32,000 bases of DNA from positions 60,001 to 92,000 of the forward strand of contig JAUWKS010000005.1 of NCBI GenBank assembly GCA_030614005.1, given 5' to 3'. Below, in pieces: positions 1,068 to 30,716 of the stretch. The notes beneath the pieces were generated by a model. That model saw only the letters and a list, made by a program, of their open reading frames with translations, was not told the DNA's origin and ran no database searches. The position numbers and the translations under genes are program-made. This DNA is from Candidatus Heimdallarchaeota archaeon. Lineage in GTDB: Archaea > Asgardarchaeota > Heimdallarchaeia > JABLTI01. How positions within the stretch are numbered: position 1 is the first letter of the stretch; every line of letters begins with the position of its first letter.

Positions 1068-2549
1068 TTACGCAGATTGTTCTTCTGCAGAACCAGAAGA
1101 CAAATTTTCTATTGAAAGAGCTTCTCTCTTTACTGGAATGAAATTGACCCAATAGATTTTCTCGGAATCTAAAAGATCAACAATTTGTTTCATGTCAGTA
1201 GTAAGTAATTTTGATTGGACTTTAGAAATTGTCCATTCCAATGATCCAATGTAGTTGGCTTTCTCCCAAACAACAAGAACTAAATGATACATCGAAACAA
1301 TCAATATTACTGCAAAAATTAAACCAAGCTCTTCACCATTGCCATATATTTTTGATTTCATGAAATTTTTGCCAGAAATGGTTCCAAATAGTAGCTGCAT
1401 AATTAATCGTGGAATATATTCAAAAATCTTCATACAATAGAGCGTGAGAGAAAGAACACCCCAACGTCTAATGAATTTCACAAAATGACGATTAGCGAAT
1501 TTATCACCTCTACCTCGATATTCAATGAAATAAAGAAACGCCCAGATGAAAATGATTTGTCCTCCAAATCGGAGTAAATAAGTTGATACTTCGGTATTTA
1601 TTTCAATTGTAGACCATGGAGAGCCAACTGCTATCAAAATGACTCCGGTGCTCATTGATAGCAGACCAATTAGAATGCCATATAGAGGTGCAAGACGCAC
1701 CTTCCCCGGATTAGCTAAGGTTAAACCTATCATTGTTCCAGCAAAGGATGTCGCAATAAATGGGAAGATTGGAAGCAAATTAGCAAATGAGATTGATATT
1801 AACCAAGCTGGGAAAGTACCAGTGCTTATTGTAATAGAACTTAAATCCAATATTGACCCACCATCAGGGTATAACCAGTTCAAATTTGGAATCCATTTTC
1901 TCATGAAGAACGTGAAAACGATTGTTCCAACAATCATACAAGCAAGAATAATCATATTTCTTGAGTGTTTTTTTAAACCATCGTTCTTACTGAAAAGATA
2001 GAGAATGAGTGTGTTTATAATTAAACAAAAACCGATAATTTGAAGTGTTTCTATACGATACAGAGACCAGATAAATTTTGAAAATCCACCAGTATAAGTT
2101 CCTGTACTAATAAGTGAACCAATAATACCATAATATCCAAGTGCTTGCTCTAACCATCCAATGATAATTAAAACAATGCCCATAAAAAACTGCTTTAAGA
2201 TTATGGGTTTTGCATTTTCATTCCTTGATAGTTTTTTGAAAACAGCATAAGAATTAACGATAGATGAAATAAACAGAAAGAATCCATGCCATGTACCAAA
2301 AAAGGCACATATTCCCAAAATGACAACAATAATGATGTTTATTTCCAAAAGTGTTTCAAAATCTTCAAGAAAACTATAATCATAAACACCCATCAATGAA
2401 TGATAAGTTATCATAGAGAATAAAGCCAATCCACGTAAGAAATCTAGTGAAGCAATGCGCTTCAATGGTTTTTTGTCTTTTTTCAATGAGTAGGTAAGAG
2501 ATTGAATATCTTCGTCTCCTTGTTGAGATACTTGAATGTATTCGCTCAT
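1068..2549 (-). CDS. Multi-pass membrane protein, heparan-alpha-glucosaminide N-acetyltransferase-like (DUF1624/acyltransferase_3 clan)
   Basis: N-terminal RIASLDFLRGLALFSM motif typical of the family, many hydrophobic segments, and LSLTLY plus GSLEW near the C-terminus. Confidence 0.75.
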   Translation of the reverse strand: MSEYIQVSQQGDEDIQSLTYSLKKDKKPLKRIASLDFLRGLALFSMITYHSLMGVYDYSFLEDFETLLEINIIIVVILGICAFFGTWHGFFLFISSIVNSYAVFKKLSRNENAKPIILKQFFMGIVLIIIGWLEQALGYYGIIGSLISTGTYTGGFSKFIWSLYRIETLQIIGFCLIINTLILYLFSKNDGLKKHSRNMIILACMIVGTIVFTFFMRKWIPNLNWLYPDGGSILDLSSITISTGTFPAWLISISFANLLPIFPFIATSFAGTMIGLTLANPGKVRLAPLYGILIGLLSMSTGVILIAVGSPWSTIEINTEVSTYLLRFGGQIIFIWAFLYFIEYRGRGDKFANRHFVKFIRRWGVLSLTLYCMKIFEYIPRLIMQLLFGTISGKNFMKSKIYGNGEELGLIFAVILIVSMYHLVLVVWEKANYIGSLEWTISKVQSKLLTTDMKQIVDLLDSEKIYWVNFIPVKREALSIENLSSGSAEEQSA

Positions 2550-2707: not shown

Positions 2708-3124
2708 CTATTCCGAAGGTATGTAAACTTCATGAACATGAACCCATTCAACACCATTAACCGCTTTTTCATTATTGCGAAAGAGTGCAGAAGATAAGCG
2801 AGCGGTAGTTATACCGTTAACTTCAGCCCATTCTTCATAAGTTACTAAACAAAGATTTCCTTCAGTTAATCTGCATTGAATATTTTGAACCCATAAGCGA
2901 TATTCCTTTTTATCATCTTTTCGAGAACCATATCCGGCTTTTATTTGTTGTAGAATTTTTTCGCGAGATTGTAATTCCCCTGTTGGGGCAATTAAAATAA
3001 ATTGCTTATCTAAAGCATTCTCTACACGTAAAAACACATCATCATTGTTTTCGACGTCTGATCTAAACCATTGAGCAAAAAACGTGTGCAAACTAATTAC
3101 TTCTTTTTCACATTTCTTTTCCAT
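2708..3124 (-). CDS. NTF2/SnoaL-like small protein (DUF4440-like)
   Basis: 138 aa with the pattern LHxFFxxWF...F.LI.P.G....R..I...VTYEEW...RLSSALF...WVHVHE, which fits an NTF2-like fold. Confidence 0.65.
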   Translation of the reverse strand: MEKKCEKEVISLHTFFAQWFRSDVENNDDVFLRVENALDKQFILIAPTGELQSREKILQQIKAGYGSRKDDKKEYRLWVQNIQCRLTEGNLCLVTYEEWAEVNGITTARLSSALFRNNEKAVNGVEWVHVHEVYIPSE

Positions 3125-3225: not shown

Positions 3226-3233
3226 TATAAATA
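3226..3233 (+). promoter_or_regulatory. Candidate TATA box for the HEAT/basic-tail gene
   Basis: TATAAATA preceded by purine-rich TAAAG; a GGTG ribosome-binding-like motif at 3269-3272 lies 7 nt before the TTG start at 3280. Confidence 0.4.
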
Positions 3234-3279
3234 GGAGAAGCGAAGTAAATTAGCTAACAATGTTAAATGGTGTGTTTAA

Positions 3280-4221
3280 TTGAAGCAAGTATCTATTACT
3301 GAAGAAGTTAGAAATTTAAAATCAAGTGATGTAAGCACTCGTAAGAAAGCAGCGTGGTCTTTAGGAGATATTGGGGATAAAAGAGTTGTAGGTCCTTTGG
3401 TGACTGCTCTAACAAAGGATAAAGATAGATTTGTTAGAAAAAATGCCGCAAAAGCATTAGCAAAGATAGGCGATCCAAGAGCAAATAAGGCTTTAAAATT
3501 TGCTAAACAGAAAGATAGAGATCCGAAAGTAAGAGAAGAAGCTGCATACGCAATTTCTAGAATTAAAGAGCTAAATTCAAAATCAAAAAAACCAAAACTG
3601 AAAGTTTCACGAACAGTAGGAAAAGTGCGTAATAAAAATCCTCCAAAAAGAAGTGAAATTTCACAAGTACACACCAAAAGACCTGTTGTTAAGAAAAGAA
3701 GGAAAGCACCTGTAAGGAAAATTGCTAAACTATCTACTCGAGTAAGTTCAAAATCAAGAAGTTCTTCACCAATTAGAAGGAGTACATCTAGTTCCTCTGC
3801 AAGGAAAAAACCATCTTCTAAAAAACCTGTTAGAGTAAAGCCAAAATCAAAACCTGCAGCAAGAACACCAGTAAGAAGCACAAAACCAAGGAGTCAATCC
3901 TCTACAAGAAAAATTAGTAGTACTGGTAGGTCAGTAAAAACAAGAAGCAGTAGCAGTTCAGCGAGACCTGTTAGAAAAGTATCTAGTAGTTCATCAAAAT
4001 CCGTTCGACGAACTTCAAGTAGATCCTCAAAACCCGTCAGACGAACTTCGAGCAGCACAACAAGAACAGTGGTTAAAGTATCTGGTAGCAAACCTAGCAC
4101 AAGACCTGTTAAGAAAGGTGTAAAAAGAACCTCAAGCTCTGTAAAGAGTTCCACCTCAAAAAGAAAAAGCAGTGATAAGTATCCTAGACCAGTTTCTTCA
4201 AAGAAGAAGAGAAGAAGGTAA
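3280..4221 (+). CDS. HEAT-repeat (PBS-lyase type) protein with a long Lys/Arg/Ser-rich disordered C-terminal tail
   Basis: Residues ~11-95 hold three HEAT-like units (DVSTRKKAAWSLGDIGD, DRFVRKNAAKALAKIGD, DPKVREEAAYAISRI). Residues 101-313 are low-complexity basic and end in KKKRRR. Confidence 0.85.
   Translation: MKQVSITEEVRNLKSSDVSTRKKAAWSLGDIGDKRVVGPLVTALTKDKDRFVRKNAAKALAKIGDPRANKALKFAKQKDRDPKVREEAAYAISRIKELNSKSKKPKLKVSRTVGKVRNKNPPKRSEISQVHTKRPVVKKRRKAPVRKIAKLSTRVSSKSRSSSPIRRSTSSSSARKKPSSKKPVRVKPKSKPAARTPVRSTKPRSQSSTRKISSTGRSVKTRSSSSSARPVRKVSSSSSKSVRRTSSRSSKPVRRTSSSTTRTVVKVSGSKPSTRPVKKGVKRTSSSVKSSTSKRKSSDKYPRPVSSKKKRRR
3994..4059 (+). repeat. 33-bp (11-aa) tandem repeat inside the basic tail
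   Basis: tcaaaatccgttcgacgaacttcaagtagatcc / tcaaaacccgtcagacgaacttcgagcagcaca encode SKSVRRTSSRS / SKPVRRTSSST; more degenerate PVR/PVK units lie on both sides. Confidence 0.8.
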
Positions 4222-4263
4222 CAAGTACCATTGCTGATAAATTGCAATAATAATTACTTCAAT

Positions 4264-10352: not shown

Positions 10353-11051
10353 TTACATATCATCAGTATCAATGAAGAAGATTGCAATACAATCAACAAT
10401 GAGGATCAATTTCTGTGATGTTTGAGCTAGAATTTGTAATACTGGACTGCTAGTAATTACTTTCATTGAATAGAAAATCGCGAAGATAAGTAATGCAATG
10501 AATACAATTATTGTAATTGCTAAATCTCGATGGAACGCAGGTGTTTTTTCGGGTTTTAGAGGACGGTGTTTTCTTGTAAATCTAATCATTTGTAATATGA
10601 AGTTGAGAATACCAAAACTAGCAATAAACAGTGCTGCACCTATCCCATGAAGAATACCCCAAGTTGGTAGACCTGCAGGTATAGCTGTTAAAACTGCTCC
10701 AACTGCCATAATAAGGCCAAATATACCTTTCAAAACATTGTTTTCGAGTTCATTCTTCATAAAATAAATAATTGCTATCGCAAGAAAAATTGCTCCACAA
10801 ATACAAAAACCAGCACTAAAAATGATCATTGATGTTAAATTAGGTAGAGAGCTAGCACTAAGATATTTTCCTAGTTGGCTAACATATTCTTGAAAGAATA
10901 GATATTTTTCTGGATAGAAAATCCAAGCAAAAACAATAGTGAATACTAGAATCGGTGCAATAGTAACAATCAATCCTTGGAGAAATCTCTGGATTTTATA
11001 ATTTGGTCCTTTATCTTCGACATTTTGATTTGGAATAGTAACTGATTGCAT
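10353..11051 (-). CDS. DUF998-like (Frag1/DRAM/Sfk1 superfamily) membrane protein, tandem copy A
   Basis: About six TM segments with YVSQLG, TAIPA, LHGIGAALF and SQKL motifs, matching my recollection of the ISxLG / P / H pattern of DUF998. Confidence 0.7.
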   Translation of the reverse strand: MQSVTIPNQNVEDKGPNYKIQRFLQGLIVTIAPILVFTIVFAWIFYPEKYLFFQEYVSQLGKYLSASSLPNLTSMIIFSAGFCICGAIFLAIAIIYFMKNELENNVLKGIFGLIMAVGAVLTAIPAGLPTWGILHGIGAALFIASFGILNFILQMIRFTRKHRPLKPEKTPAFHRDLAITIIVFIALLIFAIFYSMKVITSSPVLQILAQTSQKLILIVDCIAIFFIDTDDM

Positions 11052-11212: not shown

Positions 11213-11905
11213 CTACATATCTTCGATATCAATAAAAAAGATAGCAATGCAATTGACTATTAGAATTAATTTCTGTGATATTTGCGCTAGTAAAATCAAT
11301 GTATCATTACTACTAATTATTATCAAAAGGTAGAAAAACGTGAAGAGAGACGCTACAAAGAATACAATTATTGTCATTGTAAGATCCCAATAAAAAGCAG
11401 GTGTTTTTTCTGGTTTTTTTAGACGGTGTTTTCTTGTGAACCTCAGCATTTGTAAAAAGAAGTTGAGAAAACCAAAACCAGCAATAAACAATGTAGCACC
11501 TATTCCATGAAGAAGTCTTAAGGTAGTATGATCCGCAGGTATAGCTGTTAATGCTCCTCCAACAGCCATAATAAGACTAACTATACCTTTCGAAACATTA
11601 TGTTTGAGCTCTTTCATGACAAAATAGATAATTGCAATAACAAGGAAAATTGTACTACAGATAGAAAAGCCAATGCCAAAAATAATTGATGATGTTAAAT
11701 TTGAAAGATAGTTAGCACTAAAATATTTCCCAAGCTGGCTTACATATTCTTGAAAGAAGAAGTATTTTTCAGGAAAGAATATCCAAGAAAAAACAATAGT
11801 AAAAAATAGAATTGGTGCAATAGATATAATTAATCTGTGAAGTAATTTTTGGGTTTTGAGATTAGTATTTTCTTTTTCGTTGAGAGGTGGATTAATTGAT
11901 TGCAT
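11213..11905 (-). CDS. DUF998-like membrane protein, tandem copy B
   Basis: About two-thirds identical to 10353-11051 by manual alignment; shares FFQEYVSQLGKY, RFTRKHR, KPEKTPAF and SQKLILIV. Confidence 0.7.
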   Translation of the reverse strand: MQSINPPLNEKENTNLKTQKLLHRLIISIAPILFFTIVFSWIFFPEKYFFFQEYVSQLGKYFSANYLSNLTSSIIFGIGFSICSTIFLVIAIIYFVMKELKHNVSKGIVSLIMAVGGALTAIPADHTTLRLLHGIGATLFIAGFGFLNFFLQMLRFTRKHRLKKPEKTPAFYWDLTMTIIVFFVASLFTFFYLLIIISSNDTLILLAQISQKLILIVNCIAIFFIDIEDM

Positions 11906-17810: not shown

Positions 17811-18617
17811 TTGATTTCATTAACAAAAAGAGAAATTGTGGGAAGAGTCATGCAGAGCAAAAATAAACATGATATGATTATGTTTACATTTAGATTATTA
17901 TTAGCTATTTTTAGTTGGATTGTATTAGTGATGATGTTTTATCAAAATGTAATAAGTCAATCCAATATATCTTCAGGAATATTAGCTGCAATTGGCTCAT
18001 ACAAATATTACTCTAGGCAAACCAATCTATTGGTTGCGTTATGGTATAGCTTTGCTCTGATATTTCATTTTAAACCAATTTATCTTAAGAAAATACAAGG
18101 TGTGCTCAAAGGAGCAATTACAGTTTATATTACAATAACTTTTGTAGTTTTTGCTGTGATGTTGAGTGATTTGTATCACCCAACAGGTATTGATAGTTTC
18201 TTGAGTGTTTGTTCACATTATCTTATTCCTATTATGTTTGTTGTTGATTGGTTTATATTTGAAACAGATAACAACTACGAGTGGAGATATCTAGCCTATT
18301 GGATTATTTATTTACTTCTTTATTTGATTTTTACAATTGTTTATGCATATTTTACAAATAACTATCTCTACCCATTTCTCAATATTCAAAATTTAGGCTG
18401 GGGTAAATTTACCTTAAATGTAGGTTTATTAATAGCTGTATCTCTATTTTTTGGATTACTATTTATTAGTGCGAATAAAATTATCAGATACACAATTGAA
18501 AAGAGGAGTTTATCGAAAGATAATGTCAATTTTATCAACTTTGGCTCCAATAAAAAATCAAGAATCCCAACTTCGACTGAATATTATGATAGTTTTTGTA
18601 TTGTGATATCATCTTAA
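17811..18617 (+). CDS. Pr6Pr / FAR-17a/AIG1-like multi-pass membrane protein
   Basis: About six TMs with YKYYSRQTN, HYLIPIMFVVDW and YPFLN motifs. The true start may be a downstream ATG. Confidence 0.8.
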   Translation: MISLTKREIVGRVMQSKNKHDMIMFTFRLLLAIFSWIVLVMMFYQNVISQSNISSGILAAIGSYKYYSRQTNLLVALWYSFALIFHFKPIYLKKIQGVLKGAITVYITITFVVFAVMLSDLYHPTGIDSFLSVCSHYLIPIMFVVDWFIFETDNNYEWRYLAYWIIYLLLYLIFTIVYAYFTNNYLYPFLNIQNLGWGKFTLNVGLLIAVSLFFGLLFISANKIIRYTIEKRSLSKDNVNFINFGSNKKSRIPTSTEYYDSFCIVISS

Positions 18618-18731: not shown

Positions 18732-19247
18732 TCAAACTTTTCTTTTTCTTTCTTTTTTAGTAAAAATTCTTATGAATACAAAAAAGAACCAAGAAAAGAT
18801 GATTGTGAATGGGATAATAGTTAACACTGCGACTAAGTTTTTTACAATTATGTATTCAGAAGCAATACCAAATACAAGCGCAAGCGAAATCCCTAATGAA
18901 ATCAAAAATGAGATTCCATAAATTATCAGACTCTGTCTGTTTAAGAACCTTGATTTACTTTTATTCTTTTCTGAGAAATCACTACTACCACATTTGATAC
19001 AATATTGAACTCCTGTTGGATTATTAAAAGAACAGATATTACATTTTTGAATGAATAGTCTCTTTGCTTTGGCTTCCAATAAGATTCTATTCATATCTTG
19101 ATTGCATTCAAGGCAGGTACTATTTTGCTCTATTTGGAGTAATTTATGATCTGTGGCCTTTCCGCAATATGGACAAAAAATAATATTATGATATACGCCC
19201 TTTTTTCTTGCTTCAGGTTTTTCAATTTTCTCCTCTTCTGAAACCAT
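18732..19247 (-). CDS. Double zinc-ribbon protein with two C-terminal TM helices
   Basis: CPYC...CLEC and CNIC...CIKC pairs, then two hydrophobic helices and a basic tail. The open frame extends to 19334; ATG 19247 (MVSEEEK) is my preferred start. Confidence 0.75.
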   Translation of the reverse strand: MVSEEEKIEKPEARKKGVYHNIIFCPYCGKATDHKLLQIEQNSTCLECNQDMNRILLEAKAKRLFIQKCNICSFNNPTGVQYCIKCGSSDFSEKNKSKSRFLNRQSLIIYGISFLISLGISLALVFGIASEYIIVKNLVAVLTIIPFTIIFSWFFFVFIRIFTKKERKRKV

Positions 19248-19386
19248 TTCAATCCTCATTTTGTTATTCAATTGCTTGTTATTTAAGGAATTGTATTCAT
19301 AAATAAGAAAAAACATCATTGCAATTAGTGGCAATATTTATTAATGTTTTTTGCCAACTATTGTATAGTGCTCGGAGAAAACTTGA

Positions 19387-20600: not shown

Positions 20601-21695
20601 ATGTCTAATAATTATCTGTCTGAATTGGATCATAATGATATTCGTATTGTTAGCACGCTTGATTCTCTTCCACACAGGAGCTCCACAGAAAGAATTAGTG
20701 TGGAATTGGATATTCCATCACGGAGCATTCGTTATCGGTTATCGAAATTAAAAGAAAAAAATATTCTAAAAGAGCAAACGGTTATTACTCATGAACGAAA
20801 GCTCGGCATTCGGGAATCTTTTATTATTATTGAAGAAAATCCCAAATACAGAGAAACATTTCAGAAAATCATTGGGGAGAATCCTGCTCTAAGCTGGTAC
20901 GTTCCTACTTCTGGAAAGTTTCAAGGATTTATATTGCATTCAATAAATACAATGAATGTACCAGATTATCCTCAGCAATTATTAGCACTAATGAAAGAAA
21001 ACGAGATAGTTAATGATTATTTTCATTTTGAGATAATTGATTATCAGGAATTTGGATGGAACTACAATTATTTTAACACAGAAGGGAAATGGATTTGGAA
21101 TTGGAAGATTTGGGAAGATAATATCAGAAATAAAAATTATAATCAGGAATCAGTCGTGTTTGAAGAAAACCCTGAAGTAACTAATTTTGATTATCTTGAT
21201 ATTCAAATATTGAAAAATCTCATTCTTTTTGAAAGTATAACGCAAAAGGAGATAGGAAAGAAATTAGCACTATCTGAATCACAAATTGGCCGAAGGATTC
21301 GTTCAATGGAACAAAGTGGAATTATTCGCGGTTATCGAACTGGTTTCGCACCCTTTTCTGAAACTCAAACAGTTATGTGTATGATTAAAATTGGCGATTC
21401 CTTTGATCGTATTGTGAATATTCTAAAACAAATCCCATATCCAAAAACAATAGCTTTTGAAAATAGACAATCGATTGGTTTTGGTTTTCAAATACCAACC
21501 AATGAAATGAAGGGTTTTCTCAATGGACTTCATTGTTTGCGTCCTCTCATAGATTCATACTTTGTTCAATATCAACTAAGAAGCCCAACTTTCAATCCGC
21601 AGATATCTTTTGATTTGTTTGACAAAGGTTCAAATGATTTGAACCGAGTAGTAAAAGAATATGAACGATCTTTAGAATTCGTTAAAGCAATCTAA
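20601..21695 (+). CDS. Transcriptional regulator with two tandem Lrp/AsnC-type winged-HTH modules
   Basis: LDHNDIRIV...ISVELDIPSRSIRYRLSKLKEKNIL and FDYLDIQIL...IGKKLALSESQIGRRIRSMEQSGIIRGY. Confidence 0.8.
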   Translation: MSNNYLSELDHNDIRIVSTLDSLPHRSSTERISVELDIPSRSIRYRLSKLKEKNILKEQTVITHERKLGIRESFIIIEENPKYRETFQKIIGENPALSWYVPTSGKFQGFILHSINTMNVPDYPQQLLALMKENEIVNDYFHFEIIDYQEFGWNYNYFNTEGKWIWNWKIWEDNIRNKNYNQESVVFEENPEVTNFDYLDIQILKNLILFESITQKEIGKKLALSESQIGRRIRSMEQSGIIRGYRTGFAPFSETQTVMCMIKIGDSFDRIVNILKQIPYPKTIAFENRQSIGFGFQIPTNEMKGFLNGLHCLRPLIDSYFVQYQLRSPTFNPQISFDLFDKGSNDLNRVVKEYERSLEFVKAI

Positions 21696-22563
21696 ACATT
21701 GGTTCAGCTTTGCGTAGGATTTCACCAAGTTCATTTGCACCATCCTTATTGAAGACTAGCGCATCTAGATTGATTTTCTTGTTAGGTTTATTTTTGTATT
21801 TCTTAGCTATTTCCTTTAATCCTAATAATGCATTGCTGATAAGTTCAGTATAATTTCTCAATTTTCGAGCTACAATAATCAATAGCAGATGTGATTCAAT
21901 CTTGTCTCCTATTTGAATGCATTTTTTGAATGCTTTTGGTATTCGGATAAATAAAGTAAATGGCAAATTTTTATCAGATAAATATTCTACAATTCCAATT
22001 AAATCTTGAATATTGGTAATTAAATTGCTGATTTTCACTTTCTTTTTTGAATGTGGCTCTCCTTCACTTTCAAATCGCGAAACTAATAAGTAAATATTCA
22101 GAATTAAATCTTCGAAATTCTTTTCACTGAAATAATACATTTTTTCATAATCGAAATTACCCTTTGAAATATAATCTGAAGTGCCAAAAAGACCTGTACT
22201 AATATCATATATGAATTTTTGATTATTGATTAAATTTTGAGCTGATTTACAGATGTTTATGAGTATATCAAAAAAATAATCAGATGCTAAGAGATTTAGT
22301 GATGATTGGTAAATTTTCTTTTCTAAAGCCTTCAAATTTTGAATGACTGGTTTTAGGTTCTCAACAAACACACTTGAGTGGTAAGTTAAACTCTTAATTT
22401 CTTTTAATATTAGCAAACATTCACGAGCTTCGGATGCAATAATGTCAATATTATCTAGCTCAGCTAAATGCATTTTTTTTAATAGATGAGAATTTTCCTT
22501 AATGTGCTTCAAATATTCCATTTCTTGAAAAACGATTCTAACCATTTTTTCTGATATCTCCAT
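21682..22563 (-). CDS. Helical hypothetical protein
   Basis: 293-aa ORF with amphipathic helices; its 3' end overlaps the regulator's 3' end by 14 nt. Only a faint PhoU-like resemblance. Confidence 0.6.
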   Translation of the reverse strand: MEISEKMVRIVFQEMEYLKHIKENSHLLKKMHLAELDNIDIIASEARECLLILKEIKSLTYHSSVFVENLKPVIQNLKALEKKIYQSSLNLLASDYFFDILINICKSAQNLINNQKFIYDISTGLFGTSDYISKGNFDYEKMYYFSEKNFEDLILNIYLLVSRFESEGEPHSKKKVKISNLITNIQDLIGIVEYLSDKNLPFTLFIRIPKAFKKCIQIGDKIESHLLLIIVARKLRNYTELISNALLGLKEIAKKYKNKPNKKINLDALVFNKDGANELGEILRKAEPMFRLL

Positions 22564-29516: not shown

Positions 29517-30716
29517 TTACTTCTGTAAATCTTCAATAGAATCTATTGTAATTTTCTGTAAACATATAGGGCATTTACCTTGTGTTTTTAACCATTCGAA
29601 GAGATGGGTAAGATGGGCTTTGGATTCACAGAGAGGACATTGACCAATTTCTTGATTTTGTGAAATAGGTAATTTGCAAACAGAACATTTGAGGGTTTCC
29701 TTGTTGCAATTTGAGCAAATTTTCTGAGTTTTAGAAATCGGGCTCATGCAATAATAACATACAAGTCCATTTCTTGCTTCTTTAAAGTTAAATATATTAT
29801 CAATTTCAGCTCTAAATTGAGAATCGCCCAATAACATATTTTGAAGATCTTTCTCTTGTCGTCCTCTTTCGTTTATGATTAAATGTCTCGAGCCACTCTT
29901 ACTATCAAATCGAGCTATCCAAAATAAATGGTAAAAAGTATCAACATTTTCAAATTTGGTTATTTTGAAATCCTTTTTAATTTTCAAAGCATTTCTCATA
30001 CCAAGAAACCATTGCCTTTTGAATTTCTCCACAATGCTATTCTGTATAGCAATCTTACCATTTGCTTCTTTTCTTAATTTTCTCGTTTGGTTTTTGAAAT
30101 CAGTAGCTTGTTGTCTGTATTCTTTGTATTCAGGCGATGATTTATTAGAGGAGTACATTTCAGCATTTTTTTGAGCAATGTCTGCTTTTTGTTGAAGAGT
30201 GTCAGCTTCTGTAAATAATGGTTGCACTTCTTCTCTAGTTTTTTCTAAATCCAATACTAACTCATCATGACGGTGAATATATATTTCAAATAAGCTAGTA
30301 TAAACAATGCTAGGATCTAAAAACTGAATCACGGGTACATTAATAGTATACGAACCTAAAAGGTGCAAAAGCCTTTTTTCCTCTTTTGAATAAATCAATG
30401 TTAATGCTTTTCTTCCTCCTTTATCCAGTAAAAGTTTCTGAACAAAAGGAAATGAAAATTTACCCAACATAAAATTACTTCTTGTATGAATTTTAGTTGA
30501 AGTATCAATAGGAGAATTCTGTTTTGTGTAGCTAATCTCAAATTGCCGTACTGGCCATAACACTGGTTTGAGATAGGTTAATTTTTCAATTATTTTTCTC
30601 TGTAAGAGCCCCCCTTTCTTCCGATGCCTTTCGACTATTTCTTTGATTTTACTTTTCTCTAAATTATTCTGAATAACGCGATAACTCACACGGGAAGGCT
30701 CCTGGAGAAAATTCAT
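29517..30716 (-). CDS. Coiled-coil protein with a C-terminal zinc ribbon and a RING-variant domain (putative E3-like)
   Basis: Helical hairpin at about residues 150-235, CYYC...CSNC, then CSVC-x12-CPLC-x4-H-x2-H-LFEWL-x5-CPIC. Confidence 0.75.
   Translation of the reverse strand: MNFLQEPSRVSYRVIQNNLEKSKIKEIVERHRKKGGLLQRKIIEKLTYLKPVLWPVRQFEISYTKQNSPIDTSTKIHTRSNFMLGKFSFPFVQKLLLDKGGRKALTLIYSKEEKRLLHLLGSYTINVPVIQFLDPSIVYTSLFEIYIHRHDELVLDLEKTREEVQPLFTEADTLQQKADIAQKNAEMYSSNKSSPEYKEYRQQATDFKNQTRKLRKEANGKIAIQNSIVEKFKRQWFLGMRNALKIKKDFKITKFENVDTFYHLFWIARFDSKSGSRHLIINERGRQEKDLQNMLLGDSQFRAEIDNIFNFKEARNGLVCYYCMSPISKTQKICSNCNKETLKCSVCKLPISQNQEIGQCPLCESKAHLTHLFEWLKTQGKCPICLQKITIDSIEDLQK

Follow-up and report, generated by a model that had tools for sequence, protein, structure and literature searches.

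A 32,000-nucleotide stretch of a Candidatus Heimdallarchaeota genome (assembly GCA_030614005.1, contig JAUWKS010000005.1, positions 60,001 to 92,000; hereafter the window) encodes, at window positions 3280-4221 on the forward strand (+), a protein in which a head of three HEAT repeats is joined to a long polybasic tail that is predicted to be disordered. We found this architecture, which is undescribed, in ten species of a single genus, where the tail drifts in sequence but keeps a high positive charge that looks like a selected property. We favor, with modest confidence, the reading that the protein is a cytoplasmic two-part tether, whose polycationic tail would sit on a polyanion while the HEAT head would hold one specific ligand. 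A preliminary description, made from the sequence alone, had seen the same head and tail and proposed a phosphorylation-switched condenser of chromatin or RNA; its observation is confirmed, and its interpretation is partly supported.

A conserved HEAT head

The head (residues 1-101; 3280-3582, +) has a net charge of +12 and consists of three repeats of the HEAT_2/PBS-lyase type, as found by Pfam, AlphaFold2, Foldseek and phmmer. Pfam HEAT_2 (PF13646) matched residues 13-92 (E 7e-18; 65.1 bits against a cut-off of 27.7) and HEAT_PBS (PF03130) scored 40.9 bits against a cut-off of 20.9. In an AlphaFold2 model built on ten orthologs, six helices spanning residues 6-101 form stacked hairpins of ~31 residues with a predicted local distance difference test score (pLDDT) of 84-97, so the three HEAT units noted in the preliminary description stand. 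Across the whole protein, the Pfam scan returned HEAT/ARM-type families only, with no Linker_histone, RRM or Hc1 domain; a match to Cnd1 of condensin (E 0.0013; 19 bits, below the cut-off of 26.4) was dismissed as ordinary HEAT cross-talk. The neighbors of the head by Foldseek and phmmer were the artificial binders of the alphaRep type, MTH187 as their natural template, CpcE (a phycocyanin lyase) and DOHH (deoxyhypusine hydroxylase), with Foldseek TM-scores to alphaRep chains of up to 0.88 (target-normalized), and look-alikes in the ESM Atlas were generic small archaeal HEAT clusters only, with scores of 0.90 or less. The head is a generic thermostable HEAT-like scaffold. Public records annotate the protein only as "hypothetical protein" or "HEAT repeat domain-containing protein."

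The phmmer alignment sets the repeat register of the head, with alphaRep in register. In alphaRep libraries, positions 18, 19, 22, 23, 26 and 30 of each repeat make up the concave binding face and are randomized (PMC3754942). At these positions the head carries K22, K23 and W26; R50, F51, K54, N55, K58 and K62; and K83, E86, E87, Y90 and R94. Selection on this face is evident from its conservation across the genus: these positions are the best conserved ones, and the canonical binding face has a mean majority fraction of 0.88, compared with 0.62 in the second helix of each repeat. Among the 27 HEAT stretches of the genome, none is as basic as the head, with +12 per 100 residues versus a range of -14 to +10. 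To judge from the sequence, the conserved basic and aromatic face would bind a specific ligand, either an acidic one or a nucleic acid.

A disordered tail that keeps its charge

The tail (residues 102-313; 3583-4218, +) was delimited by composition, pLDDT and ortholog comparison. Our recount of residues 101-313 is identical to the earlier hand count, with 40 Lys and 34 Arg (74 in sum), 57 Ser and only two acidic residues, one Asp and one Glu; the same segment holds 17 Thr, 18 Pro and 23 Val and has a net charge of +72, and the whole protein reaches +84. Serine makes up 27% and arginine 16% of the tail of this species. Structure prediction bears out the two-part division drawn earlier, since the tail has a pLDDT of 40-62, below 50 over most of its length, and no secondary structure, next to the confidently modeled head. 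Large hydrophobic or aromatic residues (F/W/Y/L/I/M) account for only 7 of 215 tail residues, with no amphipathic or hydrophobic segment, and the protein has no signal peptide or transmembrane segment. As for the motifs listed previously, SPIR (residue 163), TPVR (residue 196) and the C-terminal KKKRRR are present, but the "many" RRxS motifs were overstated, as RRTS occurs twice (residues 243 and 254) alongside one RRSTSS. We counted 11 RS/SR dipeptides among the 215 tail residues of this species, and the orthologs have 2-8.

The coding strand is A-rich (AT skew +0.21), with AAA, AGA, TCA and AGT as the dominant codons. A 33-bp tandem duplication at 3985-4049 (+), which encodes two copies of SSRSSKPVRRT (period 33, 2.0 copies, 84% matches), was the only tandem repeat that Tandem Repeats Finder reported in the gene, and its presence indicates that the tail grows by in-frame slippage. 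The tripeptide [KR]P[VI] is enriched over shuffled sequences in eight of the ten orthologous tails, where the recurring unit is [KR]P[VI][KR][KR]. Ortholog alignment revealed two conserved motifs, one at either end of the tail. The junction motif (residues 96-114; 3565-3621, +) reads KELNSKxKKxKVKVS[RK]TVG, with S110, T112 and V113 invariant and their neighbors at least 90% conserved in the ten-ortholog alignment, and the C-terminal end (residues 301-313; 4180-4218, +) is YPRPVSSKKKRRR here and (R/K)PVPVKKK[RK][RK] in most orthologs, with P304 at least 90% conserved and K309 invariant. Neither motif occurs a second time in the open reading frames (ORFs) of the genome.

Six-frame searches found orthologs in 10 of the 11 species of the genus, this one included, with one copy each; the eleventh species, in which none was found, is represented by a genome that is 69% complete. 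The ten loci come from independently assembled metagenome-assembled genomes (MAGs) of cold-seep and hydrothermal sediments (CSMAG and HM7_B34, for example), and in each of them 160-230 residues of basic tail follow the same, nearly invariant head. The window protein and its nine orthologs all possess the four features of the family, namely the head, the KVKVS[RK]TVG junction, an acid-free tail no shorter than 160 residues and a C-terminus that is basic and contains PV. Although the tails are only 26-75% identical to the tail of this species, all ten have a net charge of +0.27 to +0.38 per residue, 0-4 acidic residues, a Ser+Thr content of 25-40% and few hydrophobic residues, with 6-16% Arg, 9-11% Val and 1-5% Ala. 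On the other hand, high Ser/Arg content and the RRxS and S/T-P motifs are found only in this species and its two closest relatives (G000/G001/G010), while the other seven tails are K/T/S/P/V-rich, with 6-10% Arg, 0-4 S/T-P sites and about half the serine. The objection that homologs might lack the tail therefore fails, since its length class and charge are kept in every ortholog, but the Ser/Arg richness emphasized in the preliminary description holds for three species only.

Both parts of the gene evolve under constraint at the codon level. Eight pairs were compared by Nei-Gojobori ratios of nonsynonymous to synonymous substitution rates (dN/dS). For the head, the closest pair gave 0.55 and the other seven gave 0.05-0.26; for the tail, the ratios of all eight pairs were 0.27-0.67. 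Ten species have kept 160-230 tail codons free of stops at a synonymous divergence (dS) of up to 1.3, and the indels between close species measure 3, 12, 30 and 45 nt at the DNA level, all multiples of three. Replacements to Asp or Glu in the tail number 0-3 per pair versus 2-11 expected from one-nucleotide neighbors (for example, 0 observed versus 8.3 expected, and 2 versus 11.2), with the reservation that the pairs are not independent. Since charge is kept and acidic replacements are depleted despite the drift in sequence, the charge looks like the property under selection in the tail.

The open frame is a gene with a conserved start context

The coding sequence (3280-4221, +) is an open frame of 313 codons (313 aa plus stop) in a genome of 3.6 Mb that is 90% complete and has ~32% GC. 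It begins with TTG, immediately 3' of an in-frame TAA, and the encoded protein has no Met residue. The start codon has the same aligned position in all orthologs and is ATG in seven and TTG in three, this species included. A GGTG Shine-Dalgarno-like site (3269-3272, +) lies 7 nt before the TTG, and nine of the ten orthologs have GGTG or GGTGG at a distance of 6-7 nt upstream of their start. Farther upstream, ~47 nt 5' of the start codon, the sequence reads as a TATA-box-like element, TATAAATA (3226-3233, +), which may serve as the promoter. A similar (T)ATAAATA/AAAATAgG element stands ~45-50 nt upstream at 7 of the 10 orthologous loci, and none is visible within 60 nt upstream of the L014, L016 and L019 orthologs. 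Altogether, the orthologs in ten MAGs, with their in-frame indels and dN/dS below 1, the conserved start context and motifs, and the purifying selection on codons demonstrate that the gene is real.

Both strands are open across the gene. The antisense ORFs at 3276-3881 and 3894-4247 are Leu- and Phe-rich mirror images of the A-rich coding strand and are by-products of composition, not genes. An out-of-frame ATG at 3260 opens a 7-codon mini-ORF (MLNGVFN, stop; 3260-3283, +) that overlaps both the GGTG site and the TTG start, and an ATG is present at this position in all three TTG-start species; the mini-ORF could be a tiny upstream ORF or chance. We also considered the ATG at 3260 as the true start of a frameshifted gene, but rejected this idea, since all three species with a TTG start are arranged in this way and the remaining seven have ATG at the aligned codon.

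The architecture is confined to one genus

We built a profile from all ten proteins at full length and searched 82 genomes at the level of the class and 399 at that of the phylum; only in this genus did matches extend into the tail. Matches in other genera cover profile positions 5-99 only, with ~60-70 bits versus 260-410 bits for the orthologs, and the basic tail occurs in none of the ORFs that we checked around them. Overall, searches of 388 other Asgard genomes did not recover the architecture. When 185,579 prokaryotic species, each represented by one genome, were scanned for the pattern, the matches were the same nine loci and, apart from these, ordinary HEAT proteins; the public labels of the nine loci are Candidatus Heimdallarchaeota, "Promethearchaeati" and, once, Bathyarchaeia. 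The last label belongs to the MAG of DATKZI010000061.1, which carries ortholog L068 (locus 1489-2316). A genome search places this MAG in the genus of the window; the other members of the genus carry the label Heimdallarchaeota or Gerdarchaeota, and the Bathyarchaeia label is probably wrong. These labels also agree with the earlier suggestion that the DNA probably comes from an Asgard archaeon.

In a collection of 15 billion proteins, only the cluster of the most divergent ortholog is present (from Candidatus Gerdarchaeota/Heimdallarchaeota MAGs), and the exact protein of this species is not in it. When the head and tail were searched apart, the head gave generic HEAT matches, with a search of residues 1-125 returning only generic multi-HEAT proteins and one public family member (P0008). 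A tail-only profile gave 0 matches at E <= 0.001 among 1.84 billion representative proteins and missed even P0008, the family's own public member; this blank is uninformative on distribution because composition filtering probably removed everything. The preliminary description had recognized no described family with this architecture, and likewise neither Pfam, nor searches of the PDB by sequence and by fold, nor literature searches on Asgard archaea, HEAT repeats and H1-like tails yielded a description of a HEAT head with a polybasic tail. Since the family is confined to one genus, it is a young, convergent invention at the genus level, which contradicts the earlier idea that it bears on the origin of linker-histone or SR (serine/arginine-rich) tails.

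Similar tails occur elsewhere in the genome

We scanned all stop-to-stop ORFs of at least 100 codons in the host genome for charge, and 22 of them reach a net charge of at least +22 in an 80-residue segment. Ten of the 22 were then scanned with Pfam, and the identified tail carriers are eL32, uL18, uS3, Rpo7, an M24 (MetAP-type) peptidase, a helix-hairpin-helix (HhH) protein, an actin-like protein and an epimerase (tail-carrier loci C89:15561-23235, C43:11600-12799, C122:10108-10914, C109:418-1335 and C54:12823-14136). The tail of the M24 peptidase is N-terminal, as in eukaryotic MetAP2. Given that the carriers include eL32, uL18, uS3, Rpo7, the M24 peptidase and the HhH protein, such tails appear to sit mainly on RNA and DNA machinery in this lineage. 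The tails of eL32, uL18, uS3, Rpo7 and the like are Lys/Thr-rich and acid-free, with 33-40% Lys, 11-16% Ala and 0-3% Arg. None of the other 26 HEAT stretches of the genome bears a basic tail, nor do the related HEAT ORFs that we checked elsewhere, which argues that tail growth is no general drift of HEAT genes.

Since phosphorylation had been proposed as a switch, we also note the complement of candidate enzymes in the genome. The protein kinases identified by Pfam are three RIO-type proteins and one 215-residue Bud32-like ORF, and PP2C was not found in this 90% complete genome. With S/T-P and RRxS sites limited to the three closest species and so thin a kinase complement, the phospho-switch is unsupported. 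The genome has two histone-fold genes, and PPK1 was not found in it, whereas PPK2 was not searched for.

Discussion

We propose that the HEAT-tail protein may be a cytoplasmic tether of two parts, a reading that we consider somewhat better than even. The disordered C-terminal 160-230 residues (+72 in this species) would hold the protein on a polyanion by electrostatics, and selection keeps the tail free of acidic residues; the three-repeat head would in turn offer its conserved basic-plus-aromatic concave face to one specific ligand. The polyanion would most likely be nucleic acid, either ribosomal or other RNA or the AT-rich chromosome, and since similar tails in this genome sit mostly on ribosomal and RNA-handling proteins, RNA would be at least as likely a target as chromatin. 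Precedents for such a mode of action exist in bacteria, where H1-like tails serve AlgP and PhaF for DNA binding and granule positioning, the helical heads acting on the granules (PMC9239181). More generally, prokaryotic basic low-complexity regions have been linked to RNA and DNA binding (PMC6821194), and positively charged proteins stick to ribosomes in vivo (PMC5726854).

Several points weigh against this proposal. A polycation would also bind polyphosphate, acidic lipids or acidic proteins, and a tail dN/dS of up to 0.67 indicates weak constraint on the tail. The analogy with the ribosomal-protein tails is loose because their compositions differ, with 6-16% Arg in the HEAT tail versus 0-3% and 1-5% Ala versus 11-16%. 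Moreover, no conserved neighbor of the gene hints at a partner or a process. An S6PP_C-like gene and a MacB/ATP-binding cassette (ABC) transporter are common only to this species and its two closest relatives, and beyond these three species the adjacent genes are unrelated metabolic ones, so the locus gives no operon hint.

The explanation that competes most directly with selection on the tail is that it is a tolerated, slippage-driven, low-complexity expansion whose charge follows from A-rich codons, with only the head and perhaps the two short motifs being functional. The fast divergence of the tail (26-75% identity; dN/dS up to 0.67), its variable length of 160-230 residues, the in-frame 33-bp duplication, the A-rich coding strand with its AAA, AGA, TCA and AGT codons, and the growth of such tails on many proteins of this lineage all fit this explanation. 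However, 160-230 codons have been kept open in ten species at dS up to 1.3, tail dN/dS is below 1 in every pair, acidic residues are nearly absent even though a change from Lys to Glu takes one transition, and no other HEAT stretch or related HEAT ORF that we checked bears such a tail; we therefore regard a largely neutral tail as unlikely. More radically, the frame might code for nothing and be open by chance in the A-rich sequence that follows a short HEAT gene, or it might be an artifact of assembly, and the TTG start, the lack of Met, the open antisense strand and the absence of the exact protein from the 15-billion-protein collection could be read in that way. Since the same frame is open in ten independently assembled MAGs under codon-level purifying selection, with the Shine-Dalgarno site, the start position and the junction and C-terminal motifs conserved, this possibility is effectively refuted and retains next to no probability.

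If the tail is functional, the question becomes what it binds and to what end. The SPKK DNA-binding repeats of H1 resemble the [KR]P[VI][KR][KR] unit, and the tail as a whole is H1-like in being K/S/T/P-rich, disordered and essentially acid-free. The unit also recalls the KPAA-type DNA-binding repeats of AlgP (PMC9239181). Together with an AT-rich genome (~32% GC) that has only two histone-fold genes and a Ser+Thr content of 25-40% in every tail, these features are compatible with the condenser proposed earlier, either linker-histone- or protamine-like on chromatin or SR-like on RNA, switched by Ser/Thr phosphorylation of the tail. We nevertheless find it quite unlikely, since only three close species have S/T-P and RRxS motifs and a high Ser/Arg content, the only kinases found are of the RIO and Bud32 types with no PP2C found, Pfam detects neither the winged-helix H1 globular domain nor an RRM, and 11 RS/SR dipeptides in 215 residues are far under the level of an RS domain. 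The similar tails of the genome sit mostly on ribosomal and RNA proteins, and a one-genus family is not ancestral to eukaryotic H1 or SR tails. A variant, in which the protein would be an independently evolved linker-histone-like or nucleolar-like organizer whose tail condenses chromatin or RNA, possibly by phase separation, while the HEAT face recruits a partner and phosphorylation tunes the process in the three Ser/Arg-rich species, appears just as doubtful, if not more so. Finally, the polyanion to which the tail tethers the head could be polyphosphate granules, an acidic membrane face or the like in place of nucleic acid. RNA and DNA far exceed all other polyanions of the cell in abundance, which counts against this option, as does the lack of any amphipathic or hydrophobic segment (7 of 215 residues being F/W/Y/L/I/M), signal peptide or transmembrane segment; moreover, no PPK1 was found in the genome, with the proviso on PPK2 given above. 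In its favor, electrostatics alone would not distinguish between polyanions, and AlgP, with its H1-like tail, localizes to polyphosphate granules (PMC9239181). We consider it improbable.

The two-part tether on nucleic acid thus remains the reading that we prefer. If it is true, the polycationic-tail habit of this lineage would extend from ribosomal proteins to a protein-binding scaffold. A folded head of 100 residues plus its tail also offers a compact and tractable model for the use of charged disorder in Asgard cells. Since the family occupies one genus and its tail evolves fast, we regard it as a case of convergence that does not tell how eukaryotic linker histones or SR proteins arose.

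Other genes of the window

The S6PP_C-like gene (2708-3124, on the reverse strand, -) encodes 138 aa that match S6PP_C (the NTF2-like C-terminal domain of sucrose-6-phosphate phosphohydrolase) and has no phosphatase domain; it alone was found close to the HEAT gene in several species (G010, G004 and G005), at varying distance and in varying orientation. Next to it, 1068-2549 (-) encodes a 493-aa multi-pass membrane protein that has no Pfam match at E <= 0.01 and is absent from the orthologous neighborhoods of the two closest species. Two adjacent, paralogous genes for DUF998 membrane proteins (10353-11051, -, and 11213-11905, -) represent a tandem duplication. The ORFs at 17811-18617 (+), 18732-19334 (-), 21682-22563 (-) and 29517-30716 (-) encode 200-399 aa with no Pfam match at E <= 1e-4, and the remaining genes serve ordinary metabolism and transport (amylase, amidase, pyridoxal phosphate enzymes and an ABC transporter). 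An Rfam scan of the window gave no match.

Comparison with known systems

With the C-terminal domain of eukaryotic linker histone H1, protamine-like proteins and chlamydial Hc1/Hc2, the present protein shares a long, disordered, polycationic and almost acid-free S/T/P tail, a likeness that we take to be convergent because the family is confined to one genus. Unlike H1/H5, it has no winged-helix globular domain, its HEAT head being the only folded part, and its tail holds only 1-5% Ala with 0-4 S/T-P sites per ortholog that are not conserved, which departs from a K/A/P-rich tail with S/T-P-K-K repeats. Unlike Hc1/Hc2 and protamine-like proteins, it has no Hc1 Pfam match and is not Arg-dominated, with 16% Arg here and 6-9% in most orthologs. 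It also differs from SR proteins, since it has neither an RRM nor a domain dominated by RS/SR. Closer to home, the tails on ribosomal and RNA-handling proteins of the same genome are likewise long, basic, disordered, acid-free and grown by slippage. However, they contain 33-40% Lys, 11-16% Ala and almost no Arg and sit on proteins with known RNA contacts, whereas the HEAT tail contains 6-16% Arg, 9-11% Val and little Ala and belongs to a repeat scaffold of the protein-binding kind, for which no RNA role is known.

Among proteins with HEAT repeats, PomY of Myxococcus xanthus (PMC13170346) combines a coiled coil, seven HEAT repeats, a basic intrinsically disordered region and a domain resembling a winged helix-turn-helix. 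It resembles the present protein in joining HEAT repeats to a positively charged, poorly conserved disordered region, and it acts at the nucleoid and forms condensates. On the other hand, PomY has 682 residues, a coiled coil, a C-terminal globular domain and a PomXYZ/ParA-like system, parts and partners that are absent here, and the homology between the two is only that of generic HEAT repeats. MTH187 and alphaRep (PDB 1TE4 and 3LTJ; PMC3754942) are 40-47% identical to the head and share its register and fold, with the binding surface on the concave face at positions 18, 19, 22, 23, 26 and 30; unlike the present protein, they lack a tail, and the natural members have no assigned function.

The resemblance to AlgP/PhaF of Pseudomonas (PMC9239181) would be functional and architectural only. 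The proteins have no sequence relationship, and the present protein has a HEAT_2 head and an Ala-poor, Ser/Thr/Val/Arg-rich tail with [KR]P[VI][KR][KR] units in place of KPAA repeats; AlgP/PhaF are bacterial, whereas the present protein is archaeal and has no known link to granules. What they have in common is a small alpha-helical N-terminal domain followed by a disordered, Lys-rich, Pro-containing tail of ~150-200 residues with short repeats, a very high net charge (+55 for AlgP versus +84 for the whole HEAT-tail protein), a tail that is a mutational hot spot with in-frame gain and loss of repeats, and a proposed logic in which the tail sits on nucleic acid and the head on cargo. If the tether reading is true, the HEAT-tail protein would be an archaeal counterpart of these bacterial H1-like tail proteins, built on a different head.

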